Below are positions 40,201-43,200 of a stretch of 64,000 nucleotides of DNA, piece by piece. This DNA comes from Escherichia coli (GTDB lineage: Bacteria; Pseudomonadota; Gammaproteobacteria; Enterobacterales; Enterobacteriaceae): the NCBI RefSeq assembly GCF_036507355.1, contig NZ_AP027877.1, one strand, 5' to 3'. A program made the position numbers. Position 1 is the stretch's first letter, and every line of letters begins with the position of its first letter.

Positions 40201-43200
40201 GTAAAAAAGTCGGGCAAATTCTTGAAGAGCCGCTGCTGATCAACACCAGCTTAAGCAAAGAACAGCGTCGGGAAAAAGCCCTGTCGATGATGGCGAAAGT
40301 CGGCCTGAAAACCGAGCACTATGACCGCTATCCGCATATGTTCTCCGGCGGACAACGTCAGCGTATCGCTATTGCCCGTGGTCTGATGCTCGACCCGGAC
40401 GTGGTGATTGCCGATGAACCGGTCTCCGCGCTGGACGTCTCGGTGCGTGCACAGGTGCTCAACCTGATGATGGATTTGCAGCAGGAACTGGGGCTTTCTT
40501 ATGTCTTCATCTCCCACGACCTGTCGGTGGTGGAGCACATTGCTGATGAAGTGATGGTGATGTACCTGGGCCGCTGCGTGGAGAAGGGAACGAAAGACCA
40601 AATCTTCAATAACCCGCGCCATCCGTACACTCAGGCGCTACTTTCCGCGACGCCGCGCCTGAATCCGGACGATCGCCGCGAGCGCATCAAACTCACCGGT
40701 GAACTGCCAAGCCCGCTGAATCCACCGCCGGGCTGCGCGTTTAATGCCCGCTGTCGTCGGCGCTTCGGCCCCTGCACCCAGTTGCAGCCGCAGCTAAAAG
40801 ACTACGGCGGTCAACTGGTAGCTTGTTTTGCTGTTGATCAGGATGAAAATCCGCAGCGTTAACTCACAAAACCGGGGCCATGCGCTCCGGTTTACTCAAT
40901 CAGCTTCAACAGTGGCGACAAGCATAGCAAAATGCCGTAAAGCAGAATCAGCCAGGCTTTAAATCCGCGAAGTTTTTCCAGTTGTGCGACTTTATAGATC
41001 AGGAAAAACGGAATGAGGCACGACACAATGCCATATAACGGGCTTCCCAACTGAAAGAACACCAGCACCGATACACGAAACGAAACCCAAATCGTCAACG
41101 TAATGACGATAAAAGCGCAGATCGCCAGAGTCAGCATGCGTGAGTTAATTTTCTTGGTATCAATAATTCGGCTTAACAGATTGAGAATAATGCCTTTAAT
41201 GGCCTCGTGGAAACCGAGATAAATGCCAAAGAATGCGGTCAGTACGGCAAAGATATTCAGCACCGTAGAGGTGATATGAATGATATGCCCAGGGATCACC
41301 TGCGCGGCCAGTGCCAGTGCCGAGATATTTTGTTCAAAGGCAGAAACGGCTTCTTCGTGGCTAATTGAGAAGGTAAACGAAAAGGCAAAAAACAGTATCA
41401 CCGCGATGAGCGTGATATAACTAATTCGGTGGGTACGCAGCGCGAGCCGGGTTGCCAGTACTTTATCCGCTTCCCGTTTACGATAGGCAATATTCATTGG
41501 GTTAAGTACCTGAATAAATACTGCAGAAAAGAAGCAAAATGGAATGGTAAGCAGGACATCGCGAAAAAAGACGGAGGCTTGCGGGAAGGCGGTTATATTG
41601 GCGAAATTCCAGTGCGGGATCATCGCAAAACCGAACACGACAATAATCCCTACTTTGACCACCACCATTGGCCCGGAAATCTTAAACAGTAATCGTTCAC
41701 CACCAGACGCAATCGCTACCAGTACGGCGAAAATAGCGACTTTATAAAGTAGAGATTGTGAAAGATCGGCATCGGTTAAACCGAAGGTTTTCAGGTACGA
41801 GGCGCTGTCGAAAACCACGGAGAGAGAGTAGATAAAAATCCCGTGGATAATCATCAAAAAGTAGATAACCCCGAGGAAAATTCCCCAGTTCTTCCCCAGG
41901 TAATGACTGATAATATCGGTGTAGTCATTACAGGAATCGCTTTCAGAAAGAGTTTTTAAATAAATGTCCTGCACTACCCAGGTGGCAGGATAAGCAATGA
42001 TCGCTGCGGTAATAAATACCCAAATTCCCTTCAAGCCAATTTGTACTGGCATCAGCACGGTTCCGGCACCAATCGCCATGCCTATGCATAATAAAACCCA
42101 GCCGAAGTCGTAGCGTGTAAACGGCAATTTCTGATCGTGTTTCGGTAGTGTGTTGTGCTGCATAAAGTCCTGTCCAGAAAGAAGTCGGCCTCGCAAAAAT
42201 GAATAAACCCAGTTTCTCTTGCGCAACAGGTGGAGAAGTCGAATACGCAGTATGTAAAAAATGAGGCAACAGATTCACTGGGGAGGTCGCGAGGAGGCGC
42301 AATTCTACAAAATTGCGCATTTCACTACCAGTCTGGAGTCAGCCCGGATATGAACTGCAACTATTGCAAATTAAGAAATTAAGCTGGAAGGCATCACGCA
42401 ATGAGGAAGATTGCCGGGTGCTGACAGTAAAAAGCAATCGTAAAATTAGCGGCAAGCCGGAAGGGTTCCGGTGAGGCGCAATGTTGCGGGGGCTTAATCC
42501 CTGGTGGCATTGGTTGCTGGAGAGAGAAAACCCCCGCACGTTGCAGGTATGCACCTGACAACACCACGGGGGCTAATCTTGAACCTAGACCACTCAAGAA
42601 TAGCCGCGAAACGTTGTCATTACAACACAGGCGGCTATATGACGCTCGCAGAACTGGGCATGGCCTTCTGGCATGATTTAGCGGCTCCGGTCATTGCTGG
42701 CATTCTTGCCAGTATGATCGTGAACTGGCTGAACAAGCGGAAGTAACGTGTCATGCGGGCGTCAGGCTGCCCTTTTTACAAAACCGCGATGCGCAGGCCG
42801 TTCAGCGCCAGCGCGTGGCCGATAACTTTCCCGGCAGCGATGCCTATTACAACTATGTGCTGACCCTGTTTGGACAAGGCTGGGATCAACACCGTTTCCG
42901 CTTCTCGACAAAAGGTGAGTTATTACCTGACTGGGGCCAGGAATGCGCAAATTCACACTAAACATATTCACGCTTTCCCTCGGTCTGGCCGTCATGCCGA
43001 TGGTCGAGGCAGCACCAACCGCTCAGCAACAGTTGCTGGAGCAAGTTCGGTTAGGCGAAGCGACCCATCGTGAAGACCTGGTACAGCAGTCGTTGTATCG
43101 GCTGGAACTTATTGATCCGAATAACCCGGACGTCGTTGCCGCCCGTTTCCGTTCTTTGTTACGTCAGGGCGATATTGATGGCGCGCAAAAACAGCTCGAT

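Follow-up and report, generated by a model that had tools for sequence, protein, structure and literature searches.

The junction between ldrD and bcsC

How did bcsC, a gene of the bcs cellulose locus, come to lie directly behind the type I toxin gene ldrD in an Escherichia coli chromosome? The question is raised by a stretch of 64 kb from one E. coli genome (contig NZ_AP027877.1, assembly GCF_036507355.1), which we will henceforth refer to as the window and to which all window searches were confined. A preliminary reading of the nucleotide sequence alone (the sequence-only reading) had taken the close spacing of the two genes for the scar of a deletion that had removed most of the bcs genes. 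We read positions 42000–43300 directly, listed the open reading frames (ORFs) and used K-12 MG1655 (NC_000913.3) as the reference. We consider it very probable that the arrangement goes back to a single spontaneous deletion between short stretches of homology, independent of insertion sequences (ISs), which took place in the ancestor of a rare E. coli lineage.

Both breakpoints can be placed to the base. The left flank aligns with K-12 without gaps up to window position 42771 (NC_000913 position 3,699,955), 25 nt past the ldrD stop, while the right flank is colinear from window position 42766 onwards (K-12 position 3,689,350, nt 912 of bcsZ). The six bases that fall in both alignments, GCTGCC at 42766–42771, can be assigned to either flank, and the stretch missing relative to K-12 measures 10,610 bp either way. 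The sequence-only reading had estimated the loss at roughly 10 kb or more, which is in line with this figure, and the alignment to a bcs-intact genome that it proposed has yielded the exact breakpoints together with the GCTGCC microhomology. Relative to K-12, the lost sequence comprises the rest of the ldrD 3' untranslated region (UTR) with its terminator, bcsG, bcsF, bcsE, the divergent promoter region, yhjR/bcsR, bcsQ, bcsA, bcsB and nt 1–911 of bcsZ (i.e., its first ~304 codons). Between the ldrD stop and the bcsC ATG at 42943 there remain 196 bp, close to the ~200 bp that had been read off from a stop ending at 42746 and the same bcsC start.

The microhomology at 42766–42771 (which has no strand of its own) occurs twice in intact genomes, once at each breakpoint, and a single time in the window. 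It forms the core of a longer, imperfect match, in that the sequence on the side of the long direct repeat (LDR) containing ldrD, CGTCAGGCTGCC, and the sequence on the bcsZ side, CGCCATGCTGCC, agree at 10 of 12 bases over CGYCAKGCTGCC. The chance of at least 6 bp of identity at the junction of a random join is ~0.0013 (about 0.13%). Alignments to K-12 and to strain PapM-32-1 show colinear flanks with no extra DNA between them and a short direct repeat at both reference breakpoints, one copy of which is left in the product; this is what is expected of a short-homology deletion. No IS, IS end, target duplication or foreign DNA was found at the junction (42747–42961), where every base could be assigned to one of the K-12 flanks. 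The signature expected of an IS-mediated adjacent deletion, i.e., an IS or IS end at the junction, is thus absent.

What is left of bcsZ is a stub at 42766–42961 (plus strand), which alignment, translation and tblastn identify as nt 912–1107 of K-12 bcsZ. Its frame is closed by a TAA at 42959–42961, and the translation from 42771 (LPFLQNRD...ECANSH, then stop) is identical to residues 305–368 of K-12 BcsZ, with bcsZ-only sequence being certain from 42772. The frame had been recognised as a bcsZ 3' end from its overlap with bcsC, which at 19 nt is the same as the overlap of K-12 bcsZ; this identification holds, but the stub counts 64 codons plus stop and not the ~70 codons first given. Since homology to bcsZ begins at 42766 at the DNA level, with 98–99% identity to many E. 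coli genomes, the stub is not a chance resemblance. It has neither a start codon nor a promoter of its own, and its upstream extension meets, as had been observed before, an in-frame TGA within ldrD (42674–42676). A translational fusion of ldrD with the bcsZ remnant is ruled out, as the frames differ and the TGA at 42674 closes the frame of the stub.

All ten proteins of the K-12 region were used as tblastn queries against the 64-kb window. Matches were limited to LdrD, the C-terminus of BcsZ, and BcsC, with none for BcsG, BcsF, BcsE, BcsR, BcsQ, BcsA or BcsB; together with the K-12 alignment, this agrees with the earlier list of missing genes (bcsG, bcsF, bcsE, bcsR, bcsQ, bcsA, bcsB and most of bcsZ) and with the statement that no cellulose synthase genes occur elsewhere in the window. 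Measured against a class II bcs locus, the window lacks the bcsA and bcsB pair, the syntenic site being deleted, as well as bcsR, bcsQ, bcsE, bcsF, bcsG and a full-length bcsZ, of which residues 305–368 of the protein remain; an intact bcsC is likewise lacking in this genome and is found in four relatives with the same junction (see below).

Inheritance of the junction in a rare lineage

Relatives of the sequenced genome were traced by exact-protein look-ups with LpfC and YhjJ, the exact YhjV and PdeK proteins being too common for this use (the former is widespread and the latter very common in E. coli). Four relatives reach the junction: three NCBI assemblies (GCA_905398585.1, GCA_021425525.1 and GCA_016660925.1) and one independent Logan assembly of reads from the Sequence Read Archive (SRR32181686). 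All four share an identical 61-nt string across the junction with the window, from which they differ by 0–3 substitutions in ~16–21 kb (99.98–99.995% identity). As an identical junction recurs in four independent, near-identical assemblies, it is inherited and fixed in a rare clone and does not stem from misassembly.

The finding bears directly on the suspicion that the junction is an assembly artefact, or else that the missing region was never present in this lineage. What can be said for an artefact is the general possibility of assembly collapse at the repeated LDR sequence, and nothing else; the recurrence of the junction in three NCBI assemblies and in the independent Logan assembly speaks against it. 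Primary absence is contradicted by the remnant itself, as a 196-nt 3' fragment of bcsZ and a full-length bcsC are still in place at 98–99% identity to other E. coli, and the region must therefore once have been present. We regard the probability of either as close to negligible.

Among 5,426 complete RefSeq E. coli genomes, none has the flanks joined as they are here. The string GGGCGTCAGGCTGCCCTTTTTACAAAACCG is absent from these genomes and also from the JGI metagenome collection, where a scan for the 30-nt junction gave no match. The same string could hence serve as a simple PCR (polymerase chain reaction) or k-mer marker for the clone. Exact LpfC was found on 15 contigs in the large collection that we queried. 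Shigella was considered as the source of the sequence; against it stand the presence of a single IS (an IS4) in the 64 kb of the window, the intact look of all other genes there, and the restriction of exact LpfC to these 15 contigs. The closest complete genomes are 98.6–99.1% identical over the flanks, the nearest including O145:H28 and baboon isolates. Five further contigs with an exact YhjJ have an intact bcs locus (one of them, from a metagenome, is discussed below); as their identity to the window is only ~98–98.7%, they are not close sisters and cannot be used as the ancestral state. A literature search with the assembly and run accessions of the lineage found no paper.

How the deletion arose

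The scar suggests the following course of events. In the ancestor, one copy of GCTGCC would have lain within the LDR unit, near the apex of the first of the hairpins in the ldrD 3' UTR, and a second copy in direct orientation at nt 912–917 of bcsZ, ~10.6 kb away, with the imperfect extension of the match to CGYCAKGCTGCC. The two copies would then have mispaired by slippage or annealed, with the loss of one of them along with all sequence in between, namely the 3' hairpins of ldrD, the strong terminator between ldrD and bcsG, the genes bcsG, bcsF, bcsE, bcsR, bcsQ, bcsA and bcsB, the divergent bcs promoters in the interval from bcsE to bcsR, and bcsZ up to codon ~304. bcsC would have been left orphaned behind ldrD, to acquire a private frameshift later in the genome sequenced here.

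The event would have an experimental counterpart in the spontaneous deletions between short direct repeats of E. coli lacI reportedly described by Albertini, Hofer, Calos and Miller in 1982. The likeness lies in a direct repeat of a few bases that is found at both parental ends and once in the product, in the lack of a mobile element, and in an endpoint that can form a hairpin. The lacI deletions were obtained by experiment, whereas here a natural event is reconstructed from its scar.

The left breakpoint falls 19–25 nt past the ldrD stop and thus within the LDR unit, which is somewhat closer than the sequence-only reading had it when placing the junction beside a type I toxin–antitoxin repeat. 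In PapM-32-1, which has four tandem ldr copies with a period of 483 bp, the breakpoint sequence CGTGTCATGCGGGCGTCAGGCTGCC|GTAATGGC... follows every copy, and so belongs to the repeat unit. In the eleven strain records compared, the yhjV–bcsG interval contains 1 to 4 tandem ldr copies; the window and K-12 have one each. Given this variation, several copies may have been present in the ancestor, in which case the true loss would amount to 10,610 bp + n x 483 bp.

To place the event among other losses of the locus, we used window positions 34000–51000 as a query against the same 5,426 complete genomes and counted a deletion in the locus when the flanks lay within 9 kb of each other. Such deletions were found in 81 of the genomes; bcsA had no match in 89, and in 114 less than 80% of it was covered by a single match. 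Nine distinct other events were inspected, all of which differ from the deletion in the window; the bcs locus has accordingly been inactivated recurrently and independently in separate lineages. Like the deletion in the window, each of the nine took out bcsA together with adjacent genes in the interval from yhjV/ldrD to bcsZ/bcsC. In five of them the junction carries IS1 (Res13-Lact-PEA14-20, Res13-Lact-PEB20-37-A, ETEC1739, RM9513 and ER02-39, the record NZ_CP062853.1 being one of the five). The other four junctions (LR-21-1, ES5, STEC409 and GF31) are clean, with overlaps of 1, 5, 6 and 10 bp. The presence of IS1 in five of nine events suggests that adjacent deletion mediated by this element ranks among the main routes by which E. 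coli associated with livestock lose bcs. The deletion in the window, which shares with the four clean ones a junction homology in the range of 1–10 bp, is a typical member of the clean class. No other clean event among those inspected has its left end in the ldrD 3' UTR and lacks the ldrD terminator. The event in Res13-Lact-PEA14-20 resembles the deletion in the window in that it, too, extends from the LDR array as far as the bcsZ 3' end and leaves bcsC in place, and differs from it by the presence of IS1. We also considered whether the ldr toxin–antitoxin locus acts as an anchor at which deletions stop, and rejected this as a rule, as the IS1-associated deletion in Res13-Lact-PEB20-37-A removes ldrD.

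The prominence of IS1 in the survey raises the question of whether an IS was at work in the window as well, for instance through adjacent deletion by an IS1 copy that was lost afterwards. The five of nine other natural events with IS1 at the junction speak in favour of this. However, the junction holds no IS, IS end or duplication, all of its bases being accounted for by the K-12 flanks, and the precise loss of an IS combined with the signature of a 6-bp direct repeat would take two rare events. This origin is therefore very improbable.

Several points weigh against the short-homology explanation. The mechanism is deduced from the scar, and 6 bp is a short match. The ancestral state, including the number and exact sequence of the ldr copies, is taken from genomes that are 98–99% identical, and no closely related bcs-intact genome was found. 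Finally, LR-21-1 shares the right breakpoint with only 1 bp of homology, which hints that the bcsZ site may be prone to breakage for some other reason. LR-21-1 (NZ_AP027487.1) resembles K-12, with 99.99% identity to MG1655 over the left flank, and has an independent, clean deletion from within bcsG to bcsZ (locus 10455–10470, 1 bp overlap).

This last point can be developed into an alternative in which nt 917/918 of bcsZ, where GCTGCC meets CTTTTTAC, is a recurrent fragile or cleavage site, such that a break there began the deletion and the 6-bp homology guided the rejoining only; a topoisomerase, DNA structure or a mobile element could each be the cause of such a break. The breakpoints of the other inspected events all differ from those of the window with the exception of the right breakpoint of LR-21-1, the right side of which starts at the very same nucleotide (CTTTTTACAAAACC) despite a different left breakpoint in bcsG. 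In addition, a metagenome contig of another lineage, one of the five with an intact locus mentioned above (NODE_905 of ERZ1310673, 98.65% identical), begins exactly at GCTGCCCTTTTT. Against this, the eight other inspected events have right breakpoints spread across about 2.3 kb, coincidence to within 7 nt among nine events would arise by chance in ~3% of cases (a rough post hoc estimate and not the output of a tool), none of the known recognition motifs was identified there, and the start of the contig may also be due to an ordinary assembly break. We consider a fragile site improbable and a short-homology deletion the preferred account.

As a separate observation, the start of that metagenome contig coincides with the first base of the junction microhomology, which is what would be expected if intact and window-type alleles coexisted in the sample and formed a branch in the assembly graph, though a trivial contig break may equally be behind it.

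Consequences for ldrD, bcsC and cellulose

The locus ldrD/rdlD is a type I toxin–antitoxin locus of the LDR type (Kawano et al. 2002; reviewed in PMC4147584), and its toxin and antitoxin genes have come through the deletion unharmed. ldrD (42639–42746, plus strand) is intact with 35 codons and a stop at 42744–42746, its product matching K-12 LdrD at 34 of 35 residues by tblastn. The antisense antitoxin RNA rdlD (42525–42590, minus strand) is detected in full length (positions 1–66 of Rfam RF01813, 89.2 bits against a gathering score of 50), and its terminator-like hairpin at 42547–42533 is the same as in K-12. The module therefore has both the 35-aa Ldr toxin ORF and the cis-antisense Rdl RNA, and it shares with known LDR loci the toxin ORF, the 5' UTR, the rdlD antisense RNA and the usual place next to yhjV.

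It departs from them at the 3' end of the toxin mRNA, where the two hairpins, one of them the terminator, have been replaced by bcsZ sequence. The K-12 ldrD 3' region is predicted to fold into two strong hairpins (-45.6 kcal/mol; z = -4.4 relative to shuffled sequences). The second of these is an intrinsic terminator with an 11-bp stem that is shared by ldrD and the convergent bcsG; it is present in K-12 and gone in the window. The first hairpin is cut at the 5' edge of its apical loop, where the breakpoint falls, and loses half as a result, so that the remnant of the ldrD 3' UTR in the window (42747–42771, plus strand, from the base-by-base junction alignment) corresponds to the 5' half of that hairpin. 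In place of a complete LDR unit with a structured 3' end and an intrinsic terminator, we found a weak hairpin made by the fusion (42757–42777, plus strand; GGGCG-TCAGGC-TGCCC followed by TTTTT), which was picked up by a consensus scan for terminator-like sequences. With a 5-bp stem, a run of five T and a predicted energy of -7.7 kcal/mol, it is no better than shuffled sequence. It might conceivably substitute in part for the lost ldrD terminator. The ldrD/rdlD pair hence survives with a toxin mRNA that is predicted to lack its native 3' end. The sequence-only reading had overlooked the lost terminator, along with the junction microhomology and the frameshift in bcsC described below.

The same fusion could affect bcsC. 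A consensus scan of 42150–43250 found no promoter-like site, and hence none between ldrD and bcsC; transcription of bcsC would therefore need read-through from ldrD. Had no terminator been rebuilt, the ldrD toxin transcript would run into the orphaned bcsC. This leads to a combined proposition, in which nt 917/918 of bcsZ (GCTGCC^CTTTTTAC) is a recurrent breakpoint and the particular junction seen here was tolerated or favoured, as the fusion of the LDR 3' UTR to a run of T rebuilds a hairpin-U5 terminator for ldrD. If both parts were true, the survival of deletions in an operon would be shaped by where a neighbouring type I toxin gene lies. We regard this combination as a long shot.

bcsC itself (42943–46415, plus strand; from ORFs, alignment and tblastn) is a pseudogene in this genome and had been wrongly treated as intact. 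Alignment to K-12 and the relatives shows that one T is missing after position 43630 (i.e., between 43630 and 43631 on the plus strand, at codon ~230 or nt 689 of K-12 bcsC), where the window reads ATGCCCG-CAGC and K-12 and the relatives read ATGCCCGTCAG; the site is not a homopolymer. The deletion splits the gene into an N-terminal ORF of 237 aa (to 43656) and an ORF of 923 aa from 43644. In all four relatives with the same junction the T is present and bcsC is intact with 1157 aa, so that the frameshift is private to this isolate. For the same reason, exact-protein look-ups with the 237-aa and 923-aa fragments gave no match. Either the orphaned gene has begun to decay, or the frameshift is a sequencing error; the latter, given that the frameshift is seen in this single assembly, could undo the last step of the history proposed above.

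At this locus the conventional machinery for phosphoethanolamine-cellulose is gone, judging from gene content, and a cellulose-negative phenotype is likely. Certain E. coli that have lost the chromosomal bcs locus possess another bcs cluster obtained by horizontal transfer, sometimes on a plasmid (bioRxiv 10.1101/2025.05.09.653004). As replacement clusters occur elsewhere in some genomes, the 64 kb of the window do not suffice to assert the phenotype. Strains K-12 and 730V1 resemble the present case in that they, too, show that the conventional bcs locus can be dispensed with and has been lost or silenced repeatedly; they differ from it in that no bcs gene is missing from K-12, while 730V1 possesses a replacement cluster.

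Cellulose plays an important part in biofilm formation, in environmental survival and in the perception of the bacterium by the host immune system, and the scar provides a natural history, resolved to the base pair, of one more lineage without the conventional cellulose machinery. The survey indicates that the locus has been physically deleted, in part or entirely, from ~1.5–2% of complete E. coli genomes, with roughly half of the inspected events due to IS1 and half to short homology. Convergent loss of bcs function, with effects on virulence, has been described for E. coli ST95 and other sequence types (STs) of extraintestinal pathogenic E. coli (ExPEC), as well as for Shigella and Salmonella (Nhu et al., Nat Commun 2024, PMC10881479). 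As far as the available part of that study goes, its cases share with the present one the inactivation of the same locus, the expected lack of phosphoethanolamine-cellulose, a lineage-specific lesion and clonal inheritance. They are nonsense and frameshift mutations, whereas here ~10.6 kb comprising seven and a half genes has been physically removed, and the rare lineage studied here is not among the STs that this part of the paper names. Our survey of deletions would thus complement the point mutations presented there. The deletion is a new allele of an already known, recurrent loss of bcs, an ordinary event that leaves current understanding unchallenged; what is mildly novel is limited to the right breakpoint that it has in common with LR-21-1 and to the altered 3' end of the ldrD mRNA.

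The same comparison suggests that the loss may have been adaptive and not neutral, with abolition of cellulose being selected, as has been proposed for invasive or hypervirulent clones. The convergence across ST95, other ExPEC STs, Shigella and Salmonella would fit such selection, as would the enhanced virulence in animal models presented in the part of PMC10881479 available; so would the 81 of 5,426 genomes with deletions in the locus, the 89 without a bcsA match, and the fixation of the deletion in all five genomes of the lineage. However, the other genes in the window look intact, with no sign of general host-restricted decay, and fixation in a few near-identical genomes is also expected from drift in a young clone. 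We therefore see adaptive loss as a possibility, albeit on balance an unlikely one.

The genes on either side of the locus are intact. On the left, yhjV (40892–42163, minus strand) is an ORF of 423 aa colinear with K-12 yhjV, and on the right, pdeK (also hmsP/yhjK; 46497–48485, plus strand) is an ORF of 662 aa. Further away, the window also differs from K-12 as follows. The type I toxin–antitoxin locus hokA/sokA is uninterrupted, the IS150 of K-12 being absent (window 16475–16507, corresponding to K-12 3,720,633–3,722,075). Between yhjX and eptB lies a chaperone-usher fimbrial operon resembling lpfABCDE (26330–32233), which K-12 lacks and whose usher, rare in sequence (15 contigs of the large collection), serves as a marker of the lineage. 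Lastly, a 1,426-bp IS4 at 60808–62233, with a transposase of 442 aa (NF033592, 304 bits), is the sole IS in the window and lies 18 kb from the junction. It was inserted 2 nt after the yhjB stop, with a 12-bp target duplication (CTCCTCCTGAAG), and is absent from the corresponding K-12 site. Two of the contigs of the relatives end at window position 60805 and one at 60884, just inside the element, and the IS4 insertion is probably common to the lineage as well.

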